Origin: Blasia pusilla
Lineage: Eukaryota
NCBI GenBank assembly: GCA_050084515.1
Contig: CM114271.1
Coordinates: 18,662,001 to 18,726,000, forward strand
Direction: 5' to 3'
Length of the DNA: 64,000 nucleotides
The notes below the pieces were generated by a model. It did not search any database, had not been told where the DNA came from, and saw only the letters and a program-made list of their open reading frames with translations. This document shows, one piece after another, positions 1,663 through 54,952 of the stretch. Position 1 is the stretch's first letter. Each line of letters begins with the position of its first letter. Position numbers and translations under genes: made by a program.

Positions 1663-2245
1663 TGTCGTGCGAATCCACATCATCATACAACATACATCGC
1701 TGACATACCATACTCACATACATACATAACATAGACGAGAGCATCCACAAACACAAGTGTACCACAACTGAAATCCGTGGAAGACCTATTGTCATAAAAC
1801 ACGAATAGAATCACATACAATCGAGCCAAACCCAATCCACGATGGGAGAATCCAAGTCGAAGCTTGCGGGAACCACCATAGCCAAGAGCTCTACTCACTA
1901 CCAAGGCTAACTCCCAACGCAGCAGGCTCAACTCAAAGAACTAACTGTTCTTTGAGTGCACTCCACACTATATCCTCCAACTTAAGAGCGGGCCCTACTA
2001 GAAAAGTCACCCTCAACTGAGTAACCCCCAACCCTATGTATGAAACCGCATTTCTACCTGGACACCACGGCCCTACATAAGGTATGGCCTCTACAAGCAC
2101 ACTAAACTCTACAAAATAATCCGTATGGTCATGACAATTGCCGTACGAATCCATATCGTCATACAACATACATCGCTGATATACCATACTCACATACATA
2201 CATAACATAGACGAGAGCATCCACAAACACAAGTGTACCACAACT
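1663..2245 (-). repeat. A1 3' terminal repeat block: Y (1663-1769) + X (1769-2136) + AT spacer + Y' (2139-2245)
   Basis: 1663-1769 is repeated at 2139-2245; 1769-2136 is repeated at 11120-11487. Confidence 0.92.
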
Positions 2246-2256
2246 CGCCCCCTAAC
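2246..2256 (-). other. Polypurine-tract-like sequence (sense TTAGGGGGCG) immediately upstream of y
   Basis: Plus strand CGCCCCCTAA abuts Y'; the same is seen at 24661 (A2) and 54780 (A3), with GTCCCCCT at 45583 (C). Confidence 0.65.
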
Positions 2257-2416
2257 TGGCGGTTAGATCCCTCTAACTCCCAGGTAGCCCTATACATCTA
2301 CTACATGCTATACACCTTTGTGGGTGCACGAATTAGAAGGCCGGATGCTAGGTTGCCCCATCGTTAGTCGCATATCTGTAATCCATATCATGCAAAGTTC
2401 AAGTCATGTACCTCTC

Positions 2417-5400
2417 CTAAGTACATCGAGGACAAACCCACCTTCCAGTAGGAACAACATCCATACATGGAGTCAAACACATCATGTGCCAACCCCTAGA
2501 ACACCGATCACACACCAAAATACGGACTACGTTACCAACAGACCCACACAACATGAACCTCAAACTAGCACGTATCATGGCTAAGCTTGGGTCAACAGTA
2601 CCATCCACATTTGGAAGATGACATGACGCACAATTACGCATATGGTCCTTCCAAACAACTCCATCACGACCCTCCAACATGAGAACTCCAGAAGCTAACA
2701 ACTCGCGCACTCATAAAATAGTGCGGCCTGCTGTCACATCCAACGTTGTTGATGCAATCTGCTGCAAATAGACATAGTCCCCCACATGGAACCTACAAAT
2801 TGATGGTCGATAACCTCCATCCCAAATAGTTGCATACCGTAAAGTATCCCTGTGTTGAGCAATGGCAAGATTCTCAAAGGTTGTTGGCATAACTCTCCGA
2901 AAGAGCTCTGCCCGCTGAGAACACACTCTTATCCACATCTCTGGATCATCAAGGTTCACCACCTCACTAGACTCCCAAAAAATTGTTGTTGGCAAGTCTG
3001 GATCTCGGCCGTACAACAGAAAATAAGGTGAGAAGGAAGCCAAGGATGCTTGGCGATTGAACCTATACCCAATGGCTAACCATGGCAACTGAATATCCCA
3101 GTCTCCAAGATGCCCCTTCTGTAGGCCATACTTGCGCAATGCCCTCTTCATCGTCTGAACCACATGCTCAGCCAAACCATCCGCTTCTGGATGATCTTGA
3201 GACGTGGTCCGATGATCAATCAACGCCTTGTCACACAAGACCTGAAACTCACCCTGAAACTCTGTATCGTGGTCGGTCAGCACTTTTGCTGGTGCACCAA
3301 AATGACTAAGCACTCTATCAAGAAACGCATATGCCATTCCCTCACTTGCCTTGTCAGGTAATGCCACCAAATCAATCCACTTGGAGAAGTGCTCCACCAT
3401 CACCAACACATATCGATGATGTCGTACAGTCAACGGTAACGGTCCCGCAAAGTCCACACTCCAACGGTAACCCAACCCCATAATAGCCAAGGGGTGTAAT
3501 TGTGGTGTAGGGGCATTGAATGATGCCCTCACCTGGTCACAAACCATACAATGTGACGCCAACTGCTGCAACTGAGTATGCATGCCACGCCACCAATACT
3601 CACCAAGGAGTAAGCTATACGTATGCTTTACCCCAAAATGTCCCAACTCCTCATGGGCATGTCGCACAATGCGCTCTCTTTGAGCCAAATGGGGCACGAC
3701 TTGTACTCTACCATCCTCCCACACACGTAGAATATGTGTTCCCTCCAATCGATACCTCTTAGCACGTTGAAGAACACGGTCTCGCTCCTTGGCACTCACT
3801 ATGTCTCGCACCCTACTCGTCCGTAGGAACTCCAACACCAACGCATCATCATGAATATCACGCTGATCTGTACCACCATCTCCAACCTTAGGATCAGAAG
3901 GCTGACCATCTACCCTCTGACTAGAGTAAGATGTCATGTGGTCCTCCATACTAGAGTCCACCCCTAACCAACATAAAAAGGCACATGCATGCCAACCTGG
4001 CACCATCTCCTCATCAACCTTGCCATGCCACCTAGCCCCAGTTGCATCCTCTTGGCTAGTACATGGGTTCCTACTCAACCCATCAGCATCAAGGTTGGCA
4101 ACTCCAGGTCTATGTACCACCTGGAAGTCATACTCCTATAAGATAAAAGCCCACCGTGCAAGCTTCCCTGTAAGCTTGTCAGACTCCATCAACCACTTGA
4201 GCGGCTGGTGATCAGTAACAAGGGTAAATTTTGTGCCAAACAAGTAACACCTAAAGTGTGCCACAGCCCACACTACTGCCAAGCACTCTCCCTCATATGA
4301 ACTATAGCGCGACTCCGCTGCATCATTCGAACGACTTGCATAGGCCACCAAAAACTCCATATGCTCATCATCATGTTGTGTCAACGCCGCTCCAAGTCCC
4401 AACCTACTCCAATCAGTGTGTAACTGAAATGGGCGCCCTCTGATAGGTCTCCTCAAGATAGGCGCCGTCACCAATTGGGCTTTGAGCTCCACAAAAGCTC
4501 TCTCATGATCATCTCCCCAGTGCCACTCCTGATCTGATTTCAGAAATTGGTTCAAAGGCTTTGCCATAGCACTAAATCCCTTCACATACCTCCGATAGTA
4601 GTTCGCCAATCGCATGAATGCCCGAACTCTACTCACATCTACCGGACGAGGAATAAGTGCAATAGCATCCACCTTTGCTTGCTGAACTCCCAAACCACCT
4701 AGATAGATCACATGACCCAAGTACTCAACATCCTCATGGAAGAACTTACACTTTCCTCGATACAAATATAGACCATGAGCTTTCAACCGCTCAAACACAA
4801 TCTGCAAATGTATCTGATGCTCCTCCACCGTGTTACTGAATACCAAGATATTATCAATGTAACACCCAACAAAATCCAACTCTGCTAGGATCCTCTCCAT
4901 CACTCTCTAAAACTCGGCATGTGCATTCTTCAACCCAAAGGGTAAGAACTTCCACTGGTACAAACAATCTTTGCCATGAGAGTTGACACCCCAAAATGTT
5001 GTCTTGGCCTTGTCACTCTCTCGAATTGGCAACTGATGGTATCCTGCCCGAAGATCCAAAGTACTAAAAATATTTGCCTGTCCCACCACATCAAAGATCT
5101 CCTCAGTTGTAGGCATGGCATACCTATCGGCCTTGGTCTGCCGATTGATAAGACGCTAATCTCCACACATCCGCCTATCCGTGTAGTTGCCATGCATATC
5201 CTTTTTAGCAGGCATGACAGTGGCTGATGGATACTCTCCATGCGACAACTCCACTAATCCAGCCTCCAAAAGGTCCAACGTCCTACTCAGAATCAGGTCC
5301 TTCTCCATATCACTATATCGGTAGGGACGATAGAAGATTGGCGAATCACTAGCCAAATCAATGCGTATACCGGGTCCAACCAAAGCACCCAACTCCTTCA

Positions 5401-8400
5401 TGCTAAAGGCAAAACAACTCCTATAAGCACGTAGGAATTGTGTCAAGCGTCGTTTCTCACCTCCCCTAAGCTTGGGCCCAAGTAATGGCTCCCAAGTCTC
5501 CTCCACTAGTACACTAGAGGGAGAGGACGACACCATTGGCTGTTATGCAACCCCCTCACAAGATGGTACACCCTTAGCTACACCATCATCTGAGCAAATA
5601 ACTCCTCCACCAGCATGAGCAACCAACTCCACATGCCTAGCCATTACATCTCATTTACTCCAAGATGCAGAATACTATTCTCCTCGCCCCTAGCCGATGT
5701 CTCTACCATCCGGGTAACCATCGAGCTCATCACAAGGGATGGAAGACCCATAGACATAGTCCAAAGTTGACGCTCCTCGACCATCCCAAGACTCAAAATC
5801 CACGTCAAACAATTCAAGTCCATGGCCTGACCCAACACATGACATCGTGAAGCCACAGAAATGGAAGCAACCGTTGTCACACCAGTAGCAAATCCCATCA
5901 CACGCTCTCTCTCATCAGCGTTACGCTCCACCAACTGTCGCACATGAGAATCCCATACAAGCCTGGGACCACCTTCCTTGTAGGCATGTGACGAGGGAAA
6001 ACTCACAAATGTGGGTAGTGCCATCCTAGGCTGGCCCACACAGTTCATCACTGCCATGGGTGACCGATCAATAACCCTCACCACCTGAGAAAGTCGCCCA
6101 GTATCCAAGATACTATCCACCGTAAGGCAAGGATCCCGCTGCACTGCATCATATGTTGGACGTAGAACCTCCCTAGGCAACAAGTTTGTCCACCACAAGC
6201 GTGGACGATGTCCACGCGAGCCAACTCGCGCTGCATCCAACAACACCGCTGGTCCAATCCAAGACCGCACCTCATGAACACTCGCCATCATCCGGGTCCG
6301 ATTGTCACCCAACAATGGCACATTCTCCAAATGTAAGCTGGAGCACGTGCTTGATGAACCTGAAGATGTCATAACACCCGTAACATCTCCCAAAACAATC
6401 GAGACCTAGGGTCGTGTAATCCCTCACCACGACCAACACATGTATGACCCTCACATGGCCATCCAACAATCACCAAATCCACAGGACCAACCCTCTCAAG
6501 GTCTTGCGCCACCAACAATACAATGTGTGACGGCAAAGCACGCTGGTACCCACGAATAGCTTATGGCGGCAAAAACTCATGATATTTCCACATCAACTGA
6601 CCAATATGTCGAGATGAGACTCTCGGGGCCGTCTCATCTTGCTCCACTTACACTTATCTCTGCACAGGAATACCGGCCTGCAACACTGCAGCCAAACCAG
6701 TGCTAATCCCACCAAAGAGATCTAACACACAAATGCCCTCCGGTGGATACTGCCATATAATGGGTGTAGTATCCAAAGGGGATTATGCAACTGGACCAGA
6801 AGTAGGAGTCCGCGGTGGGGCCTCCTCTTCCTCGTGAGGTATAACAGCCTCACACCAAGCCTCCTACACTAGGCGATCAGCCTCCTACCGTAGTGCACCG
6901 CCTGAACTCCAAAGTGGCACATCCAACGATAAGGATGCCACTACTGCAAAACTAGGGACCTCCTCTATCTCCTCATGCACAGGGGAATCCATAGCATAAA
7001 GATTACCCTCCAAAAAGTCTCATGCCCAAGTGACTACTCCACTAAAACCAGCCACAGATGCTAACACCGTTGGAGAAGACCCTCCTGGTCGAGCCCCATG
7101 AATAAATCTCATAGGAACCTGGCTCATACGTCCATCCCCGGACTGCCAACCAGGTCTATGAGACGTTGTCTCAGTCCAATAGTCCATCTGAAAACCCATC
7201 GGGTACAATACTGCTCCTCCAACTAGTACATCATACGACTCGGCTGATGTGACCACTGTAGGTACTCCCAACCGTGCTCTATCAGTCGCATGATCTGGTC
7301 TCAAGTGTACAGACAACTTCTCCCGTGTCATGAATTGAGACCTATCATTGGCTCCTCCAAGTGATGTTTGAATCTAGAATGGGCAAGACTCAAGCTCTAA
7401 CCTCCGAATACCCAAACCAATACATGCCGCCTTTCCCAACATCAAAGGTTGGGCACCAGAGTCTAACAAGACTCTATCAGGTCTATACACCTGTCCTGTA
7501 GGACTCACCAATCGGAATATCCCACTTTGGTTGTCCAACATACATACACCAAGTGTAAGCCTCTCACGATCAATGGCTGGCCGGGCTGCTAATGCATCCA
7601 TCTTCGCCGTTGCTACCTGCCAAGTAGCACTGGTACTCAATGCTACATCTGACATAGAGGGTCGCTCCACCGCAACACCCTCATCCACCTCAGCACGTGT
7701 AGCAGTAACACCCCCACGTTCATACAACATACTTGCTAGCTGAAATACAGGAGCTAAGTTAACTCCTAAAGCCATCAGATCCGTGGCCAAAACAATGGGG
7801 ATCCCAACACTGAAGTTGCCATCCGCAATACTGCACTGGATGCTACATCCGTGTATACTACACGCAATGTAGATGCCTCAATACCCACTGTAGGCTCAAT
7901 AGGTTGCGTAGGAACCATGGATGGAGTCCTAAGCACCTCAGACAACAAGAATGACTGGGGAAACCTAGCCTGCCTCCCAGCCTTACCCCTCTCTGGGTCC
8001 AACTCCACAGTAGCATCACGTGGCTCTGACGCTCGAGTGGCTCCTCTCGTAACTCCAACTGATGCCTCAACCTGTGCTACACTCGCCAGATAAGAGAGAT
8101 CATCCCCTCCATAAGAGGTGGAAGCCCCTGCTCCCAAACCTGCTCTATGCTGGATACCAGCCATAGTAGCCAACTTCTGCTTTAAGTGCTCAATCCTGGC
8201 AGCCATAGCTGACTCTGTCGTAGTGGTAGGGGTAGCCACCGTAGGCTCTCCAACCACTGGTCCACCTCTACCACCCCTACCACCTCTACCAACTAGGCCT
8301 CTCGGAGCTACTCCACCACGGCCGCGGCCTAATCTCAACTCTGGATGAAGATCAAAGCAACGCTCTCGAGGATGACCTGGTCTCCCGTAATGATCACATT

Positions 8401-9600
8401 GAGTTGGGGCCGAGTGAGGCCCATCCTCCAAAGTCCGTCTCCCATCCTCTTGGGGACAAAACCTCCTAACATGATCACCTCCACATGTCCAACATGACTG
8501 TCCTTGCTGCGGGGCAGCAAATGAAGGCAATGGTCTCTGGGCAAGTGTCCCTCTATGACCTAATTGAGGTCGTGTGTACCCCCCACGACTCCCACTACTA
8601 CTACCACTACCATTACTACGAGACTGTGAGGTGGACTGCTGAACATGAGAAGTAGTAGTTGTATCCCTACTGAATGCGGATGTCACCACTCTCTCCTCCA
8701 TCATGTTAAGCTCAATCTTCTCAGATCGAGCAAACACATGGGTCAATATGGGTGAATCATCACTCATAAGAGTAGCATCACGTATCCTGTGGCGCAACTC
8801 TTTTCCAAGATCCCCTACCAAAGCTGGACTACATGAGCCTGAGTCACACCATGGGTAACTGAAATCAAGCGTCGCATACGAGTGTATGCCTCACGAAGAC
8901 TCTCACCAGTCTTTCGCTCAAATTCCTGAAGACTCCTCAACTTCTCTCTCTTCACTCCTTGATAGTTCTTCTTCAACCTCTTGAAGAACTCTGCAACCAG
9001 GCTTAACGATGGTGGGGCACGAGTACCTCCACTAGTACCCCCACTGGTACCCCCACTCCGGCTCGTACTCGTACCACTCAACGTCGGGTTGGTTGGCATA
9101 GTAGGAGCACTACTACCAATACCACCATGGATGATAGACACCTAGCCTGAAGACCAATATTGTCTCCACGCCTCAATCTCAGCAACATGGTCCTTCCTAA
9201 ACTCATGGTAATCATCCATGGGTGGTCCCTCCAAGTGCTGAAACAACCCCTTCTAAGCCAAGAAGGGTGTAAACAACGTGGCGTTCCGAAATATCTATAT
9301 ATCACACCACGTATCAAAATCCTGAATGAAGTCCTCCAACTCAATGGTGCCCACTACACCCAAGTATCGTCGTGGGCCCTTCATGGCCCCATATATCCTG
9401 TCGATGTCCCGAATCAATGGAGCTGCAACACTCGATAACAACGTAGAAGACTCGGTGTTTGGAACACCCTCGTCCTCCTCTTCATCAACCGTCGGAAGTG
9501 GAAAAGGTAGCCAATACCTCAATCAACTCCGTGTAAAACCACCACTATCCGCACCACCGTCCCCAACCAGACCAACAAATAGCTCCGTGATGACCAACGC
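2417..9600 (-). pseudogene. A1 gag-pol: gag (~8300-9600), protease (~7150-7540), DNMT (~5790-6745), RT (~4560-5350), RNase H (~4130-4460), integrase (~2711-3700), PHD (2417-2560); multiple stops
   Basis: Motifs CWTCGGDHVRRFC, LLDSGAQP, LPFGLKNA, CYIDNILVFS, FQLHTDWS..GLGA, TDHQPLKWL, HEELGH..C..C, WSVDFAGP, ADGLAE and C4HC3 PHD are spread over split ORFs. Confidence 0.92.
5790..6745 (-). pseudogene. C5-cytosine DNA methyltransferase domain (DNMT3-like) within A1 pol
   Basis: Motif I VLDLFGGIS (~6705-6735), motif IV DLVIVGWPCEG (~6445-6482), motif VI LENVP, motif VIII HRPRLWWTNL, motifs IX-X ERERVMGF...VLGQAMD. Confidence 0.88.
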
Positions 9601-11108
9601 CAATGCCGCACCACCACCAAATCACCACCACTAAGTAACCAAGTGACGTCGATGTCGCTGTACTATTCTAGCTCTACTAGTTATGGGTGTAGGAAACCTA
9701 ACCTATCATCACCACAAGAAGCCTCCCACGGTCTACTGGTCATCACTCCAACCTCACTACCAGTAGCACACAGGAGTAAAACTATTCTGGAAATCAGCGT
9801 CAACCCTAACAATGGGCGCGCAAGCAAGAAGCAATGATGGAGGGGATCCAAACACAGGAAGTCCAACGACAACCCTCCAATCGCAAATGGAAATCAAGGT
9901 AACACAATCCACCAAACATGGCGCCCCCTGAATCTACAGAATCCACCACACAATTCTAACGCAATAGCTACTCTGCCGTTGGTCGATGACGTGCTACTCG
10001 CACTCGCAGTCCCTGAAAATATCACCTGCGTGGAGAGGCTACACCGTACTTTGTGCTAGAGATCCATCAACCAAAAACCCAAGATGCATAAAGCACCTAA
10101 CACATCTCCAAACAGCACCAAATGAGCTACACCAGTGTGTACACTAGCATAGTTAAGAACGCAGCAGTTAAGCGTCTTCCAGGCAGAATAGCCCAAAGAT
10201 GGGTGACCAGTTATGCAACACTCAACTCACAAATCCTGGATAAACTGCCTCACGCCCAAGCAGCCAAGCTTGCTTGCTTGCTCCTTGGTCCTAAATCCGC
10301 CTCTCACGCCCACTTGCCCCGAGCTACCACGAGTTGCCTCGAAACCTCGAAACGCCGAGAAATGCTCGGGACACGCCCCATTCGCCACGCTTTGCCATAC
10401 TTTGCTATGGAGAGAGGCCCAACGAGGGTGCCCCCAACGGGATAGGCATCTCCAAAAACGGACGAATCACCAACCAACCAGCCCCTCCGATCTGTTGTCC
10501 ACCATAGCCAGACCTTGAGCTAGTCCACTAAATTTAGATCAGCAATTACTCCACAAATCCTCAACCAAAAGTGAATCTGTTTAACCAGAATTCAATTGGC
10601 CACCATAGCTATCTCTCCACAAACAATCGGCTCCAACCTAGTTTTGTACTCCGAGTTAAAAAACAGACAAACTTGTTGTCCATACACCTCCAGAATCGCA
10701 AATCCGACAGCGCTTCCGCCCACACTCATGCACACAAAAATCCGCAACACTCCACAAACTCAAGCAGATAGCTTCACATGAGATCAAAATACAGGTAGCA
10801 ACAAGAACCTCTTACCCAATCTGGATGAACTTCAAAAGAGCTTCCGCACTCCAAGCTCTCCACATCACAAAACCGTCGAACATGAACCAGAATCTTCAAT
10901 CCTTGATAACTTCCAACTTCCTTAACAAAATCCGGCGATCTAAAGCGCGTTGGAAAGCTCTCATCAAGGCACTTCTTTTCCAATCAACCATGCACCAGAT
11001 TCATACCTCCAACATAGGCCACAAGCCACGATCATCCACGGCTGAGTACACAATCAGCCCTAACCAGATCGTACTGATCCACGATCGAAGCTACCATCGA
11101 TCTACTCT

Positions 11109-11119
11109 AGTTCTTTGAG
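11109..11119 (-). other. Non-tRNA primer-binding-site position of A1 (sense CTCAAAGAACT), putative self-priming site
   Basis: Lies directly after the 5' x repeat and is complementary to sense AGTTCTTTGAG inside x (plus 1932-1942; 11283-11293 has one mismatch). Confidence 0.7.
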
Positions 11120-11487
11120 TGAAATTCGTGGAAGACCTACTATCATAAAACACACATAGAATCACATACAATCGAGCCAAATCCAATCTATGATGGGAGA
11201 ATCCAGATCGAAGCTTGCGGGAACCACCATAGCCAAGGGCTCTACTCACTACCAAGGCTAACTCCCAACACAACAGGCTCAACCCAAAGAACTAACTGTT
11301 CTTTGAGTGCACTCCACACTATATCCTCTAACCTAAGAGCGAGCCCTACTGAAAAAGTCATCCTCAGTTGAGTAACCCCCAACCCTATGTATGAAACCGC
11401 ATCTCTACCTGGACACTACGGCCCTACATAAGGTATGGCCTCTGCTAGCACACTATACTCTACAACATAATACATATGGTCATGATA
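11120..11487 (-). repeat. A1 5' terminal repeat x (LTR-like, ~368 bp)
   Basis: Direct repeat of 1769-2136. Confidence 0.92.
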
Positions 11488-13385: not shown

Positions 13386-13433
13386 CATGAGATGAGGAGC
13401 TGATGCCGCCTCATCTCAATTGCGGAGATGAGC

Positions 13434-14207
13434 TGTCGTGCACATACACATCGGTACACAACATACATCGCTCTCATCAAACACACACACAAACACACAC
13501 GATCCCATGCTAACTCATGGCATCCATACACAGAGGCGAGAAGTACCAAAATATCTCCAATAAAATAAGATCAAATCTCTCTGTACACCATCTCACACCA
13601 TAGCTCTCAAAGGTGCACGTGTACTCTCCCTCATGTCGAACCAAACCCACTCTCCTAATGAGAGGCTTGGGTTACACTCACAATGCAAGAAACCATAGCT
13701 CGGCCGCCTCATGCCAAGAGGTTCAACAAAGAGAGAATGAGCTCTCAAGCTCCCTCTCTTGGAGGTATACCCCTTTCCCTCTCCCAAGCCCTCTCAACGG
13801 TAACCTATGCTCGCAGGTCACCTCCTTGTCTCTTGACCTACTATAGCGGGTCAAGGGCCACTTTCCAAAGTAGAAAGTCAACTATCCCCAACATGGAAAC
13901 TTACCCTAATAGTAAGTTTCTCTATATGGCTCCAAATGAGCCGAAACGAAGGGGAAACCTGCTCTCTCAAGTTTCCCGGGGCGTCAGCAGGTCATTCTCG
14001 ACCTCCTGGGCCTGTCCTCCACTACTTGTGAAGATGCTTTGCTAGATCCTACCCATCTATTCTAACAGTCGTGACAATTGTCGTGCGCATACACATCGCT
14101 ATACAACATATATCGTTGTCATCGAACACACACACAAACACACACGATCCCATGCTAGCTCATGGCATCCATACATAGAGGCGAGAAGTACCAAAATATC
14201 TCCAATA
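13434..14207 (-). repeat. B2 3' terminal block: Y (13434-13562) + X (13561-14076) + AT + Y' (14079-14207)
   Basis: Y is repeated after GTGACA-AT-TGTCG; X is repeated at 23160-23649. Confidence 0.92.
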
Positions 14208-14384
14208 GCTGGTGGTTAGGTCCCTCTAACTCCAGATAGCCATATATCCCTACCTACCATGACATACATATCTAGGACGCTAAGAGCAGAAAGGCCAGAT
14301 GCTCATGGGGCCCCATCGTAAGTCACCTTCCTCTCATCCATGTCACAGAAAAATTCGGAATCAAAATCTACCTAGTATCTCCTC

Positions 14385-17300
14385 TATGTACATCTGGGAC
14401 ACATCCATCATCCCTGAGGAACCCTAGTGAGAGGTGGTGTCAGACATGCCATATGCCAACCTCTCGAACATCCATCATAGACTAGGATCGTGGCCGCACC
14501 ACGGGCAGAACCACACAACATACAACGCAAGTTTGCAGGAACTACTGCTAAGCTCAGATCTATTGTACCATCAGTGTTAGGAAGGTGACATGGCGCACAA
14601 TTACGCACATGGTCCTTCCATATCATACCATTGCGTCTCTCTAGCAAGAGAACACAAAATGGCAAAACGTCACGCACTCTCAAGATAGTGCACCCTGCAG
14701 TCACATCCAACGTCGTCGGTGCCGTTTGCTGCAAGTAGACATAATCTCCCTGATGAAACCTCCGGATAGTTGGTCGATAACCACCATCCCAAATAGTCGC
14801 ATATCTCAACGTATCCCGATACTGCGCAATCGCCAAGTTCTCGAATGCCATGGGCATCTCTCTCCAAAACAACTCAGCATTTTGAGAACATGCTCGCATC
14901 CATACATCTGGGTCATTAAGGTCCAGGACCTCACTAGCATCTCGACAAATGGCCGCAGGTAAATTTGGCTCTCGGCCATAAAGTAGCAAGTACGGTGAAA
15001 AAGACGCTAAGGATGTCTGCCTGCTGAATCTGTATCCCATCGCCAACCACCGCAACTGGAGGTCCCAATCTCCTAGGTGACCTCTCTGCAAGCCATACTT
15101 GGGTAAACCCCTCTTCACCGTTTGCACAACTCTCTCCGCTAATCCATCCACCTCAGGATGATCTCGTGAAGTCGTGCAGTGGTCGATCAACGCATGATCA
15201 CACAAGGTGTGGAACTCACCGCAAAACTCGATACCCTGGTCTGTCAACACCTCAGCCCGTGCCCTGTAATGACTCAGTACTCGATCTAGAAGGCATACGC
15301 TACTCCCTCACTCGCTTTGTCAGGAAATGCAACCAACTCGATCCACTTCGAGAAGTGCTCAACCATCACCAACACATAAAGACTGTGACGCTCCATCAAA
15401 GGCAAAGGTCTTGCAAAATCCAAACCCCATCTATACCCTCAGCCCATGATCGGTAATGGATGCAGCTGTGGAGTCCAAGCATTGAACGATGCTCGGACCC
15501 GATCACACATCATGCACCTGGCAACAAACTGCTGAACGTTAGTCTGCATGCCTCGCCACCAATACTGAATCTAGAGCAAGCTGTACGTCCGCTTCACCCC
15601 AAAGTGACCCAACTCCTCATGGGCATGCTGCACTAGTCGTGCTCTCTGCGAAGGATGCGGCACTACGTGTACTCTACCATCCTCCCAAACCCTCAAAACA
15701 TGTGTCCCCTCCCAACGGAACCGTCTGGCCCTCTCGATCCGATCCCGCTCTCTAGCACCTACGGTGCTCGCATCGCTGCCGGTACGAAGGTACTCCAAGA
15801 CTACTCTATCATTATGAATATCTCGGCCACATGTCGTCTCCTCATTGGCCTCGGGATCCAAGGACTCTCCACTAGACCTCGCCATCGAAGTCTCCACACT
15901 CTGGCTCTCCATAGCCAACATGCCTAAATAGGCTAACGCATGCCATCTTGGCACTGACTCCTCATCACTCTCTCTATGCCATCGAGCTCCAGTCGCATCT
16001 TTCTGACTCGGGCATGGGTTACCACTCAACCCATCTGCATCTTGGTTGAGCGTCCCAAGTCTATGTACCACCTGAAAATCATACTCCTGCAACAACGGAG
16101 CCCATCTCGCAAGCTTCCCTCTAAGATTGTCGGACTCCATCAACCACTTCAGTGGTTGATGATCAGTGATGATGGTAAAGGGATTGCCGAATAAGTAACA
16201 CCTGAAATGCGCGACAGTCCACATTGCAGCCAAGCACTCACCCTCATACGAGCTGTACTTTGCCTCTGCAGCGTTGTTCGAGCGACTAACGTAAGCTACC
16301 ACGAACTCTCTACCCTCATCATCATGTTGGGTGAGCACCGCTCCAAGCCCCAACATGCTCCAATCTGTGTGCAACTGGAAAGGACGCACCCTGATCAGTC
16401 TCCTCAAGATGGGCGCGGACGTCAACCTATCCTTGAGCAACTGAAATGCTCGCTCTTGCTCATCTCCTAGTGCCACTCGTGATCCATCTTGGTCAACAAG
16501 GTTAGCGGCTTTGCAATCGAACTGAATCCCTTGACGTACCGACGATAGAAGTTTTCCAATCCCATGAATGCGCGAACACGGCTCACATCTGTAGGGCATG
16601 GAATGCGTGAGATAGCCTCTACCTTTGTCTGCTAAACACCAAGGCCCCTTGGGTATATTGTATGACCCAAGTACTCAATCTGGTCGTAGAAGAACCTGCA
16701 CTTGCTTGGATGTAGCTTCAGCCCATGTAAATGCAATCGTCGAAACACCTCCTCTAGATGTCGCTCATGCTCCTCAATCGTGGCGCTAAAGACTATGATG
16801 TCATCAATAAAACACCAAGCAAAATCCATACCAGCCAAGATCCTATCCAAAACTCTATGAAACTCAGCCGCGGCGTTTTGTAACCCAAATGGTAAGAACT
16901 GCCACTGGTACAACCAATCCTTCCCGTGAGGATCGATGCCCCAAAATGCCGTCTTCTGCCTGTCCTCCAATCTGATTGGCATTTGCTGGTATCCGACTCG
17001 CAAATTCAATGAACTGAAGACGTTTGCGTGACCAATCGCATCAAAGATCTCCTCAAGGGTGGGCATGGCATACCTATCGGACTTTGTCTACCGATTGATA
17101 GGTCGGTAATCCCCACACATCCGCCTATTCGTCCAGTTTCCATGCACATCCTTCTTGGCGGGCATGACAGTGGCAGATGCATACTCCCCATGCGATATCT
17201 CCACTAGTCCTACTCCGACCAAGTTCTAGCTCCTACTCTGAATCAGAGCCCTCTCCATATCACTGTACCTGTAGGGTCGTCGAAAGATTGGCGTATCACT

Positions 17301-20300
17301 CGACAACTCAATGTGGATGCCCAGTCCCTTCAACGTACCCAAATCCTCCATGCTAAATGCAAAGTAGCTCCTATAACTCCTGAGGAACTGATGTATCCGG
17401 CGTCGCTCTCCTCTTGTCAACTTAGGGCCCATATTTGGCTTCCAAGTCTCCATTGTGACTACGGTAGGACTCTCCGGCGCGGGTATTGGTGGATGCTATG
17501 GTGCAATCCCATCTCAAACAACAACACTCGGCCGCTCTCCTGCAGCCAACTGCAAACTCTGATCTCCTCCATGTGCAGTGCCCAAAACCACGCTCGATGC
17601 TCTGGCTATCATCTCTTGGCGTACCTGCAAAACATCCCAAGAAGTCCAAGGGTGTCTCTCCCAATCTCCCCTGGTATGTAGATCTCCTCGAGTCTCGCCC
17701 CCAGCCACTGCCTCCACCGTCTTGGTAGGCATGGGGCTCACCAACGCAACCGTTGTGATCTGTCGCGATCTCCTACGACGTTGCTCAGCCACTTTCAAGT
17801 TGAGGATGGATGTCAAGCAATTCAGGTCCATTGCCTGACCCAAGACATGGCGTCGTGATGCCTCTGACACTGACGGTACTGTCGTCATTCCTATGGGAAA
17901 TCCCATCGCTCGCTCTCTCTCATCGGCGTTGGGCTCCACCAACCGTTGAACCTGGTCATCCCAAGCCAAGCAAGGACCGGCCTCCTTGTATGCATAGGAA
18001 GCGAGAAAACTCACAAACGTGGGCAAGGCTGCCCGCGGCCTGCCTACCGTGTTGACCATAGTCAACAGTGGTCGATTGTGCCTCACTGCCTGTGATCGAC
18101 GACTTGGATCTAGAATGGAATCCACTAACAAATGGGAGGGACGATCCACTCTCGCATACGCCCTCCGTAACACCGCGTGGGGCACCAAGTTGGTCCACCA
18201 TAGACGCGGGCAATGGGCTCTAGAACCTACACTCCCCCACATCCAAGAGCACTGTTGGGCCAATCCAGGCACGCACCTGGTGAGCAATCGTCACTACCCG
18301 TGCCCCGAGTCTCCTAATATCGCACATTCTCCAGAATGTAGGCTGGAGAATGAGACTGGTGCTCGTGCAACTTCTGTAAGACCCTCAACATCTCCCAAAA
18401 CAACCTGGACTGAGTGTCAGCCAATCCGCTGCCTCATCCAGCACTCGATTGGCCCTTACATGGCCAACCGGCAATGACCAAATCAATGGTTCCTACCCGC
18501 TCTAAGTCCTGTGCCCCCAACAACGAAATATCCCTCTGTAGGGAACTTTAATTTGGTACCCCTGTACCGCGGACGCAGAAATAAGTCGGGAAAACGTAGG
18601 CGTAACTGTGCCACATATCGTAGTGAGATGCGCCTTGCAACATCATCACTCTCCACATACAGGTACTGATGTACTGGCACTCATGGGTGCAAAACAACAG
18701 CTAACCGGGTTCTAATCCCTCCAAAGAGATCTAACACTCGAATACCCTTCTCCGAGGTACACCACACAATGGGTGTGGTATCCAAAGGTGTCATCGTAGC
18801 ACTTCATGCTACCTAGAGTTCCTCAGACCCGTCACGCTCCGGTGCAAAAGCCTCGCTCCACGCGGTCTGCACGTGTTCCTCTGCCAATCGTCAAAGCTCC
18901 TCAGTCGAGCCCCACAACAGCACCTCTCCTCCACGGAATGATGCGGCTACCATAACACTTCTCTCCATAGAAATTTCAGGAACGGGAATATCCTCTGGAT
19001 GGACATGGTCCTCAATCAAATCACTAGGCCAAGTGATGGCACTGCTAAATGGTGCTAAGGTCGCCATCTCTCCTGGCCGTTGGTCAATCACTGCACCTCT
19101 GAATCGAGCGGGTAATGAGCTTAGGCGCCCATCACCTGACTGCCATCCTAGTTTATAGGACACTGACCCCTCCTAATAATCCAGGGCAAACCCCATCGGG
19201 TATAACACTCATCCACCAACCAAGACGTCGTAGGACTTTGCATCAGTCACTATCGCCTTGGCTCACACCACGGACTCATCTGTAGGATGTCTCGGGCGAA
19301 TCCACACCACGACCTCCTCTCGGGTGATATAATGTGTGGTACTCACTCCATCCAAGGATGTCCGTATCCGGAATGGACAACGCTCCACATTGGCTCTCGT
19401 GAAGCCTAGTCCTCTGAATGACGCTTTCCCCAACATCAGGGGTTGCGCTCCTGAATCCAAAAGGACTAGCAGCCGCAGCGTGCCATGAATTTGACGTGCA
19501 CGGCCTGAGCATCTGCTCCAAGGGCAGGTCCATTACCTCCTTTGCAATCACCTCTGAATGTGATGCAGGAACTCCAAATCCACGCTCACATAGCATAGTG
19601 GCTAGCCAAAATGCCTCGGCGGACGTACCCCCCAACGTCATAACATCGGAAGCAGAAAATAAAGGAGTGCGGTACACAATGGTGGCTGCCCCCAACAACG
19701 TGATCGACATATGCCCCTCTTGAGTATCAAAAATAGGAGTCGTCGCACTTGCTTCTCCCATCGCCCTCCGTGCGTGCACACCAACAACATTACCAACTCT
19801 CCAGGAACTTTGATCAGGACCCATCGATGGGGTCCTCATCGCCTCGGACAACGTGATAGTTGAGGAAACCTAGTCTATTTGGTGGCTTCCCCTCATTGTG
19901 GATCCAACTCTGCGGCTGCTCCATGCGTCATGACTACGGCTTCCTCCATGTGGGCAACCCCGCACATCCAACCAGGATCCTCCATATCTCTGGCTGCTCC
20001 ATATAATGTCGATGCCACGGATCCGACATCGGGTAATCTCAATGCCATAGCGGCAATATGCTCCTGTAGCTGATGTATCTGAGCAGCCATCCTAGCCTCA
20101 CGCCCGACATCTCCCTTGACGTGTCTAGGTGGTGGGACTCTACCTCCTCCACGGGCAGCTCCACCACCCTGCCGGGCAACTCCAGTTCCTCGTCTCCCAA
20201 CGGGACCGCCAGGTGCACGATCTCTAGGCCCACCCGGACCGGCTACTTGCTCTGGTGCCCTCTCTGGCCCTCGGTCCGGACGTAACTCAGGATGTAAAAT

Positions 20301-21550
20301 GAAACACTTGGCGCGTGTATGACCATACCTCTGACAATAGTCACACTCATAACCTCCTGGTGTAGCACCATCTCCTCCTCCATGTTGAGTCATACATCCA
20401 TGACCCTGACAAGTGCAATCGCGCTGATGATGGGCTCCACCACATGACCAACAAGTAATAGTAGGCAGCTGCTGCTGAGCCGCATATGAAGGCGCAAATC
20501 TCTGTGGCACGGCCTCCTGGTATTCCACCTAAGCTCGTGGTGCCACAGCCGACCTATCTCGGAGTCCACGTTGCTGCACATGTAGTGCAGACAATCGTGA
20601 CTGCTCTCGCCCAGAACCCATGGTGGCTACGCTCTCCTCCGCCATGTTGCGCTCAATGTTCTCGGAGGTCCTAAAAATATCTCTCAATGTAGGGGAGGTG
20701 TTCATAAGAAGCACCCCTCCCGCACCCATGACCGCAGGGTCCGGTCCAGCATCGCGTACCATGACTGGATAGCCTGAGCCTCTGTCACCCCCTGAGTGAC
20801 GTTGATCAACCGGCGCAAGCGAGTGTAAGCCTCACGCAAACTCTCACCCTGGCACCTCTAGAAATCGTGGATGCTCCGCAACTTCTCTGTCCGTACCCCC
20901 AGGTAGCTCGCCCTCAACTCAGCAAAGAACTCAACCACAAGGTTGAACCTAAGACGCACCTGACTAGACGGTGCAACTGCTCCCATGTGAGTGACCCCTC
21001 CAAAAACGTCACTAGTGGAAGAGGAAGTAGCCTCTTCTGACTCCTCCTCCTCATCTAGGAACGGCTCCGTCTATGACACATAGTGTGGGTCATAGTAGAG
21101 TCGCCATGCCTCAATCTCTTGGGCATATATGTGGGAGAACTCATGGTAATCATCCATGGGTGCCTCCTCTAAATGCTGGAGCATACCATTCCATGTTGTA
21201 AATGGGTTGAACTCTGTAGAGTTCCTAGCCCGCTATGAGTCACACCAACTCCTAAACTCCGCAATGAAGTCGTGTAGCTCTATGGTGCCTACAGCACCCA
21301 AAAACCTACGCGGTCCTCTACCTCGGTCGTCCATCTCATACGCCCAACTAGTAGGACCACTCAATGTGTACGGTGGATCACTAACAAACTCCTCTACACG
21401 CTCCCCTTCGTCTGAAGACGACACAAAAGGAGATCGAGGTGGTCTTTCACTTGGAGATCCTCGAAACCTCGCATCACTACGGGTAAACCCTCTAGAGCTA
21501 CTCTCAGGTCCACTACCTTGCCTCTCAAAATCCTAAAAGGACGCCGTGAG
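14385..21550 (-). pseudogene. B2 gag-pol with DNMT (~17800-18745) and C-terminal PHD (~14390-14525)
   Basis: CWSCGGAHHQRDC and CDYCQRYGHTRAKC knuckles, DSGAQP, VIAGWPCKG (~18455-18480), SRAHCPRLWWTN, LGQAMD, CFIDDIIVFS, LHTDWSMLGLGA, CMLCGS..C..GWHMACL. Confidence 0.9.
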
Positions 21551-23144
21551 GGCCCTTGTGTCCCTCTCACCCGATCACTCTCAACCTCGCGAGTTATCCC
21601 TCAATCACTCATCCCAAACATGGGGCACTCGATCTACACTCTCCCTCTTCGAGACGTGTAACGTGCAGCAACAAGCGGCGTGGTGCGGCAAATCGACCAG
21701 GCTATCATCTCATCGACAACCTACTCTCAACTCCGGACATCCCACACAAGTCTATGTCCCCTAAACCACATACATAAATGATGCTCTTAGCATCCACACA
21801 CCCAATATCCCCAAATAAACTACCAAAATCCCAGAATCCCTCATGCGTGTAGGATAAAGGACCAGAATGGGTAACCTGAACTCATGTCGATGTCGCTCTT
21901 CAATAACTGCAAATCTCAACCCGAACTCGGTCATGGAGATAACTCCTCCAATCAGCAAGTCATAACCCTCCCATACAGACGCTGCTCAAAACTCTTCGGT
22001 TGACAGTGCGGAACGGTGCGGCGTTGCAGGCAGCACAGAACAGCTACGAACGGCACGGACCTCGATGGTGGGATGCGGCACTTGGCGGCATAACCTCCTC
22101 AATCAACAATAAACCCACACTCTGCTCCACAATGACAGTGCGGTTCCGTGATCGAGATGGTGCGGTGCGGCTAGAGCGGCACGGCGCGGAAATTGGCGGC
22201 GCGTTGCGGCTACGAGCGTCACGGCATGGTACTCGATCGTCGTCGAGCGGCTACCAATCACAACATAGCAGCATGAAATCAAAACTCAAACACCATAACC
22301 GGAGGTCATGTGCCATCACTTGTTGATGACAAAACTGTGATGACGGTGGCGGCCAAAAAAAAGTACGTGTTGGCAACGCAGGTCAGAGAATCAACGAACG
22401 TTGTGGAAGATCCTCCAATCCGTAACGGCGGCAATGGCAACCAAAGGGTGGACAACGGACCGTGGACCGTTGACGGTGACGGTTCATCGTTGATTGTGAT
22501 GGCCGACCGCTGAAGGTGATGGTTGACCATTGATGGTGAAATTTGACCATCGATGGTGGACGGTTCGCGATGACTATAACGGGGACGGTAGTTATCGGCA
22601 TGGCGGGTGGTTTAGGGTTTGAACAATTTAACCCTAAAAACCGCCTTGCAATGGCAATTTTGCAAGATTGACCATAACTTTTTGCTCGCAACTCCAAATT
22701 GCGTACTGTTTATTGCACAACGTGTACAGCTTCATGATCTACAACAACATTAAAAAATATTTGGAATTAGACATTCCAATAAAAATTATAGGGACTGTTG
22801 TAAATCCCAATGTCTCTTTCTCCGACACAAAATTTGGCAGCGCTTCCGCGCTAATTTCTCCCAACAAAAATGTAAAACCTATAAAAATACAAATCAGCAA
22901 GCTACATGGTGCTCTTGAGAGCATTGGCATGGGGAAATATGCCCCAATAATCAATCCCTATCAGAAATTGGGCAGCGCTTCCGCACGCCACTCTTCCATA
23001 CGAAAAATTGGCAAATGCAAAGAACAATCAAAGCAGCCCTTGCTCCGCTGAGCACTCCCATGAGCCGCTGAATGGGGAACATGGTCCCCAACGTGCAAAA
23101 ACAGCGAGTGACCAGTGGGCTCCCCCATGAAGCTCTCTCACTCT

Positions 23145-23160
23145 CTCATTCTCTCTTTGT
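23145..23160 (-). other. B2 PBS-position sequence (sense ACAAAGAGAGAATGAG), putative self-priming site
   Basis: Plus CTCATTCTCTCTTTGT is the exact reverse complement of ACAAAGAGAGAATGAG at 23319-23334 and 13726-13741 inside X. Confidence 0.72.
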
Positions 23161-23649
23161 AAAGTAAGATCAAATCTCTCTGTACACCATCTCACACCAT
23201 AGCTCTCAAAGGTGCACGTGCACTCTCCCTCATGTCAAACCAAACCCACTCTCCTAATGAGGGGCTTGGGTTACAATGCAAGGGACAATAGCTCGGCCAC
23301 CTCATGCCAAGAGGTTCAACAAAGAGAGAATGAGCTCTCAAGCTCCCTCACTTGGAGGTATACCCCCTTCCCTCTTCCAAGCCCTCTCAACGGTAACCTA
23401 TGCTCGCAGGTCACCTCCTTGGATCTTGACCTGCTATAGCGGGTGAAGGGCCACTTCCCAAAGTGGAAAGTCAACTATCCCTAACATGGAAAAATAACCG
23501 AAATAGTAAGTTTCTCAAACGAAGGGGAAACCTGCTCTCTTAGGTTTCCCGCGGCCTCAGCACGTCATTCTTGATCTCTTGGGCTTGTGCTCCACTATTT
23601 GTGAAGACGCTCTGCTAGATCCCACTGATCTATCCTAATAGTCGTGACA
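23160..23649 (-). repeat. B2 5' terminal repeat x (~490 bp)
   Basis: Direct repeat of 13561-14076, with small deletions. Confidence 0.9.
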
Positions 23650-24077: not shown

Positions 24078-24660
24078 TGTCGTGCGAATCCACATCGTCA
24101 TACAACATACATCGCTGACATACCATACTCACATACGTACATAACATAGACAAGAGTATCCACAAATGCAAGTGTACCACAACTGAAATCTGTGAAAGAC
24201 CTACTGTCATAAAACACGTTTACAATCACATACAATCGAGCCAAACCCACTCCACGATGGGAGAATCTAGGTCGAAGCTTGTGGGAAACACCATAGCCAA
24301 GAGCTCTACTCACTACCAAGGCTAACTCCCAACGCAACAGGCTCAACTCAAAGAACTGACTGTTCTTTGAGTGCACTCCATCTTATATCCTCCAACCTAA
24401 GAGCGGGCCCTACTGGGAAACTCACCCCAAACTGAGTAACCCCCAACCCTATGTATGGAACCGCATCTCTACCAAGCCACTACGGTCCTACATAAGGAAT
24501 GGCCTCTACTAGCACACTATACTCTACGACATAATCCATATGGTCATGACAACTGTCGTGCGAATCCACATCGTCATACAACATACATTGCTGACATACC
24601 ATACTCACATACGTACATAACATAGACGAGAGTATCCACAAACGCAAGTGTACCACAACT
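24078..24660 (-). repeat. A2 3' terminal block: Y (24078-24184) + X (24184-24551) + AC + Y' (24554-24660)
   Basis: Same layout as A1. Confidence 0.93.
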
Positions 24661-24832
24661 CGCCCCCCTAATTGGCGGTTAGGTCCCTCTAACTCCCAGG
24701 TAGCCCTATACATCTACTACATGCTATACACCTTCTTGGGTGCCCGAATTAGAAGGCAGGGTGCTAGGTTGCCCCATCGTTAGTCGCACATGTGTAATCC
24801 ATATCATGCAAAGATCAAGTCATCTACCTCTC

Positions 24833-27800
24833 CTAAGTACATCGAGGACAAACCCACCTTCCAGTAGGAACGACATCCAAATGTGGAGTCAAACACATCA
24901 TGTGCCAACCCCTAGAACACCGATCACACACCAACATACGGGCTGCGTTACCAGCAGACCCACACAACATGCACCTCAAGCTAGCACGTATCATGGCTAA
25001 GCTTGGGTCAACAATACCATCCACATTTGGAAGATGACATGGCGCACAATTACGCACATGGTCCTTCCAAACAACTCCATCACGACCCTCCAACATGAGA
25101 ACTCCAGAAGCTAACACCTCGCGCACTCGTAAAATAGTGCGGCCTGCCGTCACATCCAACGTTGTCGGTGCAATCTGCTGCAAATAGACATAGTCCCGCA
25201 CATGGAACCTACGAATCGATGGTCGATAACCTCCACCCCAAATGGTTGCATACCGCAACGTATCCCTGTGTTGAGCAATGGCAAGATTCTCAAAGGTCGC
25301 CGGCATAACTCTCGAAAAGAGCTCCGCTCTTGAGAACATACCCTCATCGACATCTCTCGGGTCATCAAGGTTCACCACCTCACTAGACTCCCGACAATTC
25401 TCCGGCAAGTCCGGATCTCGCCATATAACAAAAATAAGGTGAGAAGGAAGCCAAGGATGCTTGGCGGATCGAACCTATACCCCATGGCTAACCATGGCAA
25501 TCGAATATCCGGTCTCCAAGATGCCCTTCAGAGGCCATACTTGCGCAATGGCCTCTTCACCGTCTGAACCACACACTCAGCCAAACCATCCGCCTCTGGA
25601 TGATCTCGAGACGTGGTCCGATGATCAATCAACGCCTTGTCACACAAGACCTGAAACTCACCCGAAAACTCTATACCTGGTCGGTCAAGACTTCAGGTGG
25701 TGCACCAAAATGACTAAGCACTCTATCCGAAACGCATACGCCGTTCCTCACTTGCCTTGTCCGTAATGCCACCAACTCAATCCACTTGGAGAAGTGCTCC
25801 ACCATCACCAACACATATCGATGATGTCGTACAGTCAACGGTAACGGTCCCGCAAAGTCCACACTCCAACGGTAATCCAACCCCATAATAGGCAAGGGGT
25901 GTAATTGTGGTGTAGGGGCATTAAATGATGCCCTCACCCGGTCACAAACCATACAACTTGATACCAACTGCTGCACCTGAGTATGCATGCCACGCCACCA
26001 ATACTCGCCAAGGAGTAAGCTATACGTACGCTTTACCCCAAAATGTCCCAACTCCTCATGGGCATGTCGCACAATGCGCTCTCTCTGAGCCAAATGTGGC
26101 ACTACTCGTACTCTACCATCCTCCCACACGCGGAGAATATGTGTTCCCTCCAATCGATACCTCTTAGCACGTTGAAGAACACGGTCTCGCTCCTTGGCAC
26201 TCACTATGCCGGCACCCCTGGTCTCAGAGGAACTCCAACACCAACGCATCATCATGAATATCACGCTGATCCGTACCACCATCTCCAACCTTAGGATCTC
26301 AAGGTGGCCATCTACCCTCGACTAGAGTAAGATATCATGTGGTCCTCCATACTAGAGTCCACTCTAACCAACATAAAAGGCGGATGCATGCCAACCTGGC
26401 ACCATCTCCTCATCAACCTCGCCATGCCATCTAGCCCCAATTGTATCCTCTTGGCTAGTACATGGGTTCCTACTCAACCCATCCAGGTTCAACTCCTTAT
26501 GAGGGAGATCAAGGTTGGCAACCTCACAGTCTATGTACCACCCGGAAGTCATACTCCTCTAAGATAAGAGCCCACCGTGCAAGCTTCCCCTGTAAGCTTG
26601 TCGGACTCCATCAACCACTTGAGCGGTTGGTGATCGAACCCAGGGTAAACGGGTGCCAAACAAGTAACACCTAAAGTGTGCCCACACCCACACTATTGCC
26701 AAGCACTCTCCCTCATTTGAACTATAGCGCGACTCGCTGCATTTTTTGAACGACTTGCATAGGCCACCACAAACTCCATGTGCTCATCATCATGTTGTGT
26801 CAACACCGCTCCAAGTCCCAACCTACTCCAATCGTGTGTAATGAAATGGGCGCCCTCGATAGGTCTCCTCAAGATAGGCGCCGCCACCAATGGGCCTTAA
26901 GCTCCACAAAGCTCTCTCCCTGATCATCTCCCAAAGTGCCACTCTTGATCTGATTTCAGCAATTGGTTCAAAGGCTTTGCCATAGCACTAAATCCCTTCA
27001 CATACCTCCGATAGTAGTTCGCCAATCCCATGAATGCTCGAACTCTACTCACATCTACCGGACGCGGAATAAGTGCAATAGCCTCCACCTTTGCTTGCTT
27101 TGAACTCCCAAACCACCTGGATAGATCACATGACCCAAGTACTCAACATCCTCATGGAAGAACTTACACTTTCCAAGATGCAAACGTAGACCATGAGCTT
27201 TCAACCGCTCAAACACCATCTGCAGATGTATCTGATGCTCCTCCACCGTGTTACTGAACACCAAGATATCATCAATGTAACACCAAACAAAATCCAACCC
27301 TGCTAGGATCCCGTCCATCACTCTTTGAAACTCGGCAGAGTTCATTCTTCAACCCAAAGGGTAAGAATTTCCACCTGGTACAAACAATCCTTGCCATGAG
27401 AGTTGACACCCCAAAATCTTTGTCTTGGCCTTGTCACTCTCCCGAATCGGCAATTGATGGTATCTCGCCGAAGATCCAAATCTTGAAAATCTTTGCTTGT
27501 CCCACCACATCAAAGATCTCTCAGTGTAGGCATGGCATACCTATCGGCCTTGGTTTGCCGATTGATAGGACGGTAATCTCCACACATCCGCCTATCCGTG
27601 TAGTTGCCATGCATATCCTTTTTAGCGAGCATGACAATGGCTCGATGCATACTCTCTATCGACAACTCCACTAATCCAGCCTCCAAAAGGTCCAACGTCC
27701 TACTCAATCAGGTCCCTCTCCATATCACTATATCGGTAGGGGACGACGGAAGATTGGCGTATCACTAGCCAAATCAATCCGTATACCGGGTCCAACTAGA

Positions 27801-33201: not shown

Positions 33202-33569
33202 TGAAATCTGTGAAAGACCTACTGTCATAAAACACGTTTACAATCACATACAATCGAGCCAAACCCACTCCACGATGGGAGAATCTAGGTTGAAGCTTGC
33301 GGGAAACACCATAGCCAAGAGCTCTACTCACTACCAAGGCTAACTCCCAACGAAACAGGCTCAACTCAAAGAATTGACTGTTCTTTGAGTGCACTCCACC
33401 TTATATCCTCCAACCTAAGAGCGGGTCCTACTGGGAAACTCACCCCCAACTGAGTAACCCCCAACCCTATGTATGGAACCGCATCTCTACCAAGCCACTA
33501 CGGTCCTACATAAGGAATGGCCTCTACTAGCACACTATACTCTACGACATAATCCGTATGGTCATGACA
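33202..33569 (-). repeat. A2 5' terminal repeat x
   Basis: About 8 substitutions in ~368 bp versus 24184-24551, counted by eye. Confidence 0.93.
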
Positions 33570-54779: not shown

Positions 54780-54952
54780 CGCCCCCCTAACTGGCGGTTA
54801 GGTCCCTCTAACTCCCAGGTAGCCCTATACATCTACTACATGCTAAACACCTTCTTGGATGCACGAATCAGAAGGCCGGGTGCTAGGTTGCCCAATCGTT
54901 AGTCGCCCATCTGTAATCCATATCATGCAAAGATCAAGTCATCTACCTCTCC

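Follow-up and report, generated by a model that had tools for sequence, protein, structure and literature searches.

The window, a 64,000-nucleotide stretch of Blasia pusilla DNA (contig CM114271.1, positions 18,662,001 to 18,726,000), contains Ty3/gypsy retrotransposons whose reverse-transcription signals and integration sites disagree in a fixed and conserved way. In the textbook account LTR retroelements integrate by the two ends of their linear cDNA, and circles are deemed dead ends. In the elements described here the disagreement between signals and sites can be reconciled only if the cDNA ends are joined and a palindrome lying inside the LTR is cut. That a circle, or an equivalent end-joined molecule, is cut by the integrase in this manner is given a little better than an even chance.

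Repeat anatomy and target-site duplications

The window holds nested retrotransposons, most of them on the minus strand, and has a strong skew of C over G. In a blastn self-comparison each element reads a-b-NN-a...b on the plus strand; in A1 the a repeat (107 nt) occupies 1663-1769 and 2139-2245, and the b repeat (367 nt) 1770-2136 and 11120-11487. On the coding (minus) strand, where a and b are called y and x, the order in the complete copies A1, A2, A3 and B1 is x-internal-y-NN-x-y. The copies and their target-site duplications (TSDs) are as follows.

1663..11487, minus strand: A1, complete; 3' y 1663-1769, 3' x 1770-2136, NN 2137-2138, internal y 2139-2245, 5' x 11120-11487 (blastn self-comparison)
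1659-1662 and 11488-11491: TSD of A1, TGGA/TGGG; uninterrupted target paralogue at 20425-20434
13434..23649, minus strand: B1, complete; 3' y 13434-13562, 3' x about 13563-14076, NN 14077-14078, internal y 14079-14207, 5' x 23160-23649
13430-13433 and 23650-23653: TSD of B1, GAGC
24078..33569, minus strand: A2, complete; 3' y 24078-24184, 3' x 24185-24551, NN 24552-24553, internal y 24554-24660, 5' x 33202-33569; TSD AACG
54198..63962, minus strand: A3, complete; 3' y 54198-54303, 3' x 54304-54670, NN 54671-54672, internal y 54673-54779, 5' x 63597-63962; TSD CGTT
44808..46741, minus strand: C, 3' part only; 3' y 44808-44952, 3' x 44953-45439, NN 45440-45441, internal y 45442-45582

All four complete copies have TGTC...GACA outer ends and 4-bp duplications. 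Since the duplications flank the start of x and the outer end of y, the outer y belongs to the element and y is truly absent from the 5' end. The topology x...y-NN-x-y, put forward in a preliminary description of this DNA, was thus found to be correct by both the self-comparison and the TSDs. An element with x as its LTR inserted into a y target was ruled out by the same position of the duplications. A2 is the youngest copy, with 97.8% identity in its x pair and 97.2% in its y pair. C is truncated at about 46741 by a B-type element of opposite orientation, and its 3' block alone is checkable.

The nesting extends to older copies. A1 lies in an older B-type copy (1-1662 and 11488-13382 of the window) and A3 in a plus-strand B-type copy (46742-54197 and 63963-64000), the one that truncates C. 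The region 34000-44800 has a lower G+C content (0.39-0.47) and no skew, and may be host sequence between the elements; its part 34000-39000 has no repeat matches within the window.

The internal junction in the window and in metagenome relatives

On the plus strand the internal junction reads GACA-AT-TGTC in B1 (14073-14082), GACA-AT-TGCC in A1 (2133-2142), GACA-AC-TGTC in A2, GACA-AT-TGTC in A3 and GACA-GT-TGTC in C, and all five junctions quoted in the preliminary description were recovered at their positions. The motif TGACANNTGYC was matched seven times in the window against 1.86 expected, a count reached in 1 of 100 shuffles, but one of the seven matches (932) is unrelated and the palindromic junction of C is counted twice. 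The real support for the junctions is structural rather than a matter of motif count.

A scan of metagenome contigs by integrase alignment yielded 80 loci, 35 of them with less than 1300 nt past the integrase. Among the other 45, a y pair together with the junction ...ACA-NN-T(G/A)TCATG was present at 17 loci, which comprise 11 distinct sequences with the same repeat order and with integrases 43-80% identical to those of the window. Junction-like motifs 3' of the integrase in L026, L029, L045, L049, L053 and L058, uncorroborated by repeat copies, were left out of the junction count. The five window copies and the 11 metagenome sequences make 16 distinct elements, and the proposed conservation of the internal junction with its 2-nt spacer held in every one of them as CA-NN-T(G/A): CA and the 2-nt spacer were found in 16/16, followed by TG in 12 and TA in 4, with AT, AC, GC or GT as the NN of the coding strand.

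Five of the relatives are complete, with x at the 5' end; L003, L027 and L050 are flanked by the TSDs AAGG, AATC and GGTC, respectively, and in L067 and L079 three of the four bases match. TSDs are thus present in all nine complete elements (four in the window and five relatives), with one mismatch in three of the nine. The window is densely nested and metagenome contigs can collapse repeats, so that nested insertions, tandem arrays, misassembly or chance palindromes had to be weighed as the source of the pattern. Such an artefact is hardly credible: the nine independent complete copies come from two kinds of data, their duplications match at the start of x and the end of y, and the architecture is identical across integrases as divergent as those of the relatives.

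Both ends are known for 11 elements, nine of the full form, two of the form x-I-y (I, internal region; L001 with the TSD TACA and L012 with the TSD TGTT) and none of the form x-y-NN-x-I-y. A single y followed by unrelated DNA was seen at 16 metagenome loci (L001, L012, L005, L014, L025, L026, L029, L046, L053, L054, L058, L063, L066, L068, L071 and L077) and in none of the five window copies. These loci may be y-y recombinants, products of a cut at both palindromes or in a 1-LTR circle, or loops collapsed in short-read assemblies; if they are real, x-I-y may be a common product that forms without end joining. Two other arrangements were noted among the metagenome loci. A deletion in L036 and L056 fuses the tail behind the integrase to the inner part of the 3' x, and L049, L051 and L061 carry a candidate y-x-y-like block about 2.7 kb past the integrase, behind tandem repeats.

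Replication signals

Two signals for reverse transcription were located in A1 next to the repeats.

11108..11120, minus strand: A1 primer-binding site of the self-priming type, beginning on the final base of the 5' x; complement of x positions about 193-204
2246..2258, minus strand: A1 polypurine-like tract, ...TTAGGGGGCG on the coding strand, immediately 5' of the internal y

The reverse complement of an inner segment of x stands at the x end in three unrelated sequence versions, namely ACTCAAAGAACT in A3, a 16-mer in B1 and AATTCTAGAAAAACT in L050 and L079. It always begins at the last base of x or a few bases from it; the inner partner is preceded by a TATA-like box at about 30-35 nt, and the x end follows at about 125-175 nt. 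The exact complement is 10 nt long in A1, 12 nt in A3, 16 nt in B1 and 15-17 nt in L003, L050 and L079. In six of 11 elements the match was longer than in any of more than 1000 control windows (10 nt was reached in 0/1174 windows for A1, and 16 nt in 0/1213 for B1), and in the remaining five it was equalled or exceeded by the controls: A3 with 12 nt (equalled, 1/1166), L027 with 10 nt (2/1350), A2 and L067 with 8 nt each, and L001 with 6 nt.

A complement of this kind is a signature of Tf1-type self-priming and, as far as sequence alone can tell, would place the RNA start inside x and the origin of the minus strand at the x end; the complementarity and its co-variation between families were both observed, and the 5' end of the RNA is located to about 300 nt. 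The primer-binding site that had been expected to follow x was borne out directly after the 5' x, with the difference that it is complementary to inner x and not to a tRNA. No tRNA genes were found in the window and no primer site of the tRNA type was recognised by eye; tRNA priming, considered as a candidate, was replaced by the self-priming site. The placement of the primer site directly after x, and not after y, also ruled out an LTR of the form x-y with y-NN-x as the circle junction.

A G-run (e.g. TAGGGGGGCG or TCTGGGGGGGG) adjoins the internal y on its upstream side in families A and C and in all three metagenome clades. The polypurine tract proposed to precede y was therefore upheld for these groups but not for B1, which has no purine run next to y.

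Copy-specific variants are common to both x copies and to both y copies of one element along their length (7 x sites and 3 y sites in A2), and the position-specific differences between repeat copies come down to one site, an artefact of coordinate setting. The shared variants indicate that, like LTRs, both repeat pairs are copied afresh from a single template in every round of transposition.

Stranded RNA reads from runs X21 and X22 were mapped over the A2 region (23800-33900). They cover the coding strand, with zero depth in the 5' flank and a depth that rises towards the 3' end and then, around the 3' x/y border, drops from 47-74 to 0.6-1.2, a change measured, at a resolution of about 300 nt, from the bin with the 3' x to the bin with the outer half of the 3' y and the flank. 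Read starts pile up at 33408 (24/48 and 16/56). Most reads are 90-99% identical to A2, so other, related copies are the source of this RNA.

Some RNA joints skip 25223-31727 (6 and 7 reads) or, with replaced letters, 25296-26320, which suggests deleted relatives. Differences between the reads and the window over 23800-33900 are dominated by C>T and G>A (e.g. 304 and 206 places in X21), an excess that fits the decay of methylated cytosines in these copies.

The primer site after x, the G-run before y, the renewed repeats and the RNA coverage together identify y-NN-x as the LTR in terms of replication, the same LTR that the preliminary description had derived, and in agreement with the placement of the primer site and the polypurine tract. 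This LTR is never found at the outer ends of an element, where the 5' end consists of x alone and the 3' end of y-NN-x-y.

The x|y junction

The sequence of the x|y junction is that of the x end followed by the y start. In the L050 group it includes three bases of the primer-site start in L050 and L067, two in L059 and none in L079; L079 also lacks 4-5 bases of y, and L006 has about 18 extra bases. The junction is identical among eight A-type copies. Its variability, against a palindrome spacer fixed at 2 nt, makes x|y look like joined cDNA ends, but it could also reflect later mutation. In retroviral 2-LTR circles the joints of cDNA ends show such variability. The predicted cDNA ends of families B and C do miss the CA, as had been claimed. 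Splicing as a source of x|y was ruled out, since the borders are not GT...AG in any register.

Coding capacity and classification

On the minus strand the Pfam domains follow the Ty3/gypsy order RVT_1, RT_RNaseH, Integrase_H2C2, rve and PHD finger. Two segments of the A1 polyprotein were assigned as follows.

2711..4135, minus strand: A1 integrase ORF, zinc-binding H2C2 and DDE core (PF17921 2e-13, PF00665 8e-12)
5644..6405, minus strand: DNMT3-like cytosine methyltransferase segment of A1 Pol, decayed, between protease and RT; weak PDB matches to DNMT3A/B alone, best E 0.07, and no Pfam match

The integrase residues D228, D288 and E323 are invariant in an alignment of A1 with 13 relatives. 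The best named relatives of the A1 integrase ORF are proteins of Calypogeia (76-83%), Riccia (72%) and Marchantia (up to 90%, over partial length), and the identity of the window integrase to Klebsormidium nitens proteins is 40-50%.

A PHD finger (PF00628, down to 1e-10) forms the C-terminal end of the integrase at 14408-15307 and 24833-25474, both on the minus strand, and at L050:10490-11647. Chromoviruses carry a chromodomain at that position of the integrase. The C-terminal PHD finger suggests chromatin-guided targeting.

In L050 the segment 7388-9931, at the same position of Pol upstream of RVT_1, matches PF00145 at 2e-9 (37.8 bits, cut-off 22), and the domains of this element are gag-asp_proteas, DNA_methylase, RVT_1, RNase H, Integrase_H2C2, rve and PHD. 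A further, likewise decayed Dnmt3-type methyltransferase segment lies in the window at 17514-18290 on the minus strand. Its presence in the window and in L050 places DNMT-carrying Gypsy elements in liverwort-like genomes, beyond Klebsormidium.

The elements are members of the DNMT3-carrying group of Ty3/gypsy, with protease, cytosine methyltransferase, RT, RNase H, DDE integrase and PHD finger. They have the Pol domain order, the TG...CA ends and the short TSD of Ty3/gypsy elements, but not an identical LTR at each end with the integrase sites at the LTR ends. The C5 cytosine methyltransferase in Pol between protease and RT that characterises the Gypsy-DNMT3 group is present in L050 and decayed in the window copies. 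Of the features of the DIRS order they show the split direct repeats, but neither a tyrosine recombinase nor the absence of a TSD; an ORF-wise scan of 31 ORFs from A1, B1, A2 and L050 gave no match to the tyrosine recombinase family (PF00589, Phage_integrase).

These features bear on the idea that the elements replicate like DIRS elements, with a near full-length RNA copied whole and y-NN-x serving as the template or bridge that restores the ends as in DIRS-1, in which case the primer and polypurine assignments would be wrong. The repeat order is indeed that of the split direct repeats of PAT and Ngaro elements, going by the passages on these repeats in PMC7192593 and PMC5890265, and the RNA, at its coarse resolution, is without the outer start of x and the outer y. 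We nevertheless regard DIRS-like replication as very improbable, since the self-priming complement co-varies in three versions exactly at the x end, the G-runs stand exactly at the y start, both repeat pairs are homogenised over their whole length and not only at the tips, and the elements carry a DDE integrase and 4-bp duplications, with no tyrosine recombinase in the ORFs scanned.

Proposed route of integration

In the route that we infer, transcription would start inside the 5' x, about 30 nt past the TATA-like box, and stop close to where the 3' x ends. The opening bases of the RNA would anneal to the site that adjoins the 5' x and prime the minus strand, the G-run directly before the internal y would prime plus-strand DNA, and reverse transcription would yield linear DNA with the LTR y-NN-x at both ends. 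In this DNA the integrase sites (TGTCRTG...CA) would lie not at the cDNA ends but within each LTR, abutting to form the palindrome CA-NN-TG. If the cDNA ends were joined once to give x|y, and one palindrome were cut with a stagger, the result would be x-I-y-NN-x-y. A cut after each CA would leave recessed CA-3'OH ends with 2-nt 5' overhangs, to be inserted with a 4-bp duplication; recessed ends of this type are the normal substrate for strand transfer. The simplest physical form of the intermediate would be a 2-LTR circle cleaved by the integrase.

The integrated form equals two copies of y-NN-x minus one NN, and so corresponds to the predicted two-LTR DNA after one end joining and one cut in a palindrome. 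In the preliminary description it had been taken for a 2-LTR circle opened at one internal NN, which is right as regards the integrated form but leaves unaccounted for that one of the two permutations alone is seen, the other being found in 0/11 elements. A symmetric circle carries the same palindrome twice, which makes a plain 'circle cut at either site' incomplete as an explanation. The element's own cytosine methyltransferase might account for the single permutation if it marked one of the palindromes. Neither a circle nor an end-joined molecule was seen; DNA contig joints from 33566-33570 to 24084-24561, obtained in run X1, are indistinguishable from the internal junction of other copies.

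The observed spectrum of forms would also follow from reading around by the reverse transcriptase, or from cutting before joining with a bias to the left LTR. In the first case no closed circle is formed: a third jump of the reverse transcriptase, or read-around, gives a linear three-LTR molecule y-NN-x-I-y-NN-x-y-NN-x, of which the integrase takes the outermost TG and CA. This would yield x-I-y-NN-x-y and x-I-y but never x-y-NN-x-I-y, in agreement with the 9, 2 and 0 of 11 elements, and x|y would still be the U5 end joined to the U3 start. End joining accounts better than templated copying for the bases gained or lost at x|y in L006 and L079, however, and to our knowledge no three-LTR intermediate has been described for Ty3/gypsy elements; we consider read-around rather unlikely.

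In the second case integration comes first, the integrase cutting the palindrome in the left LTR of linear cDNA and inserting the new ends, and host repair then joining the original cDNA ends. The same product and the same variable x|y would arise, a free circle would be unneeded, and the distance from palindrome to DNA end, about 110 bp on the left against about 370 bp on the right, might bias the choice of LTR. Such a sequence of events would leave a chromosome break to be mended at every insertion, and we know of no precedent for a route with integration first and joining second. Its topology is the same as that of the circle model, so that the two cannot be separated on sequence grounds, and we hold it to be improbable.

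For the end-joined intermediate the question of generality arises. Obligatory integration through end-joined DNA (a 2-LTR circle or its equivalent), with the integrase serving as a nuclease specific for a palindromic att site within the LTR, could be a property of a whole DDE-integrase clade from streptophyte algae to bryophytes; we advance this tentatively, as having somewhat less than an even chance. If it is true, the once-discarded route with the circle junction as att site would be the normal pathway, convergent with that of the DIRS elements and their tyrosine recombinase. Confirmation of the end-joined route itself would make these elements a natural case of a DDE integrase at work on an internal att site. 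It would also provide a mechanistic link between LTR elements and DIRS elements, account for a repeat order so far noted without explanation, and assign extrachromosomal circular DNA a productive part in the life of a plant-lineage transposon. Because related copies are transcribed, the hypothesis can be put to a direct test.

Comparison with known systems

The closest described case is KnitGypsy-Dnmt3 of Klebsormidium nitens (de Mendoza et al. 2018, Nat Commun, PMC5890265), which the legend of Fig. 4c of that paper presents as having a DIRS repeat structure (A-coding-B-A-B) with Gypsy domains. To judge from this legend, the window elements share with it a Ty3/gypsy Pol with a Dnmt3-type methyltransferase and a DIRS-like repeat order; they differ from it in that their closest named relatives are liverwort proteins, at 72-90%. 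In the main text of PMC5890265 the terms 'circular' and 'target site' are absent, and no junction sequence, duplication, primer site or integration mechanism is given. A 2026 preprint names 'streptophytes (Gypsy-DNMT3)' with the repeats undescribed, and a literature search, with supplements outside its scope, found no paper that explains this repeat arrangement in a Gypsy element. The family and the repeat order were thus known already; what appears to be new is the anatomy of the junction, the site for self-priming and what follows for the mechanism.

Self-priming Ty3/gypsy elements of the Tf1/sushi type were reportedly described by Lin and Levin in 1997. As in Tf1, the putative primer-binding site of the window elements could pair with what are presumed to be the first bases of their own RNA. 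The LTRs of Tf1 are ordinary, with the integrase sites at the cDNA ends. In the window elements, by contrast, the LTR is permuted.

TOC1 of Chlamydomonas is a non-autonomous element, later assigned to the DIRS/PAT-like elements. Day et al. are said to have noted in 1988 its 'unusual arrangement of long terminal repeats'. Like it, the window elements belong to the green lineage and have their LTRs in a split arrangement.

Elements of the DIRS order encode a tyrosine recombinase and are not known to make a target duplication. The account of repeats in PMC7192593 gives the PAT-like and Ngaro elements of this order split direct repeats A1...B1-A2-B2, and cites Cappello 1985 for the 'internal circle junction' of DIRS-1. 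Judged by that account, the window elements have the same repeat order, and in both groups an internal junction stores ends that are missing from the transcript. They differ from the DIRS order in the DDE integrase, the TG...CA ends, the 4-bp duplications and the primer-site and polypurine signals.

The integrases of foamy virus and HIV-1 cut the palindromic LTR-LTR junction of 2-LTR circles, according to the parts of two reports that deal with this cleavage (Delelis 2005, PMC1180852; 2007, PMC1905944). The route proposed here would share with the viral reaction, as presented there, a DDE integrase that cuts at an internal CA...TG palindrome and leaves 3'-processed ends. In the two viruses, on that account, the palindrome arises where the cDNA ends meet, and its cleavage merely restores the linear form, whereas in the window elements the palindrome lies inside each LTR with a 2-nt spacer, and cutting it would permute the element.
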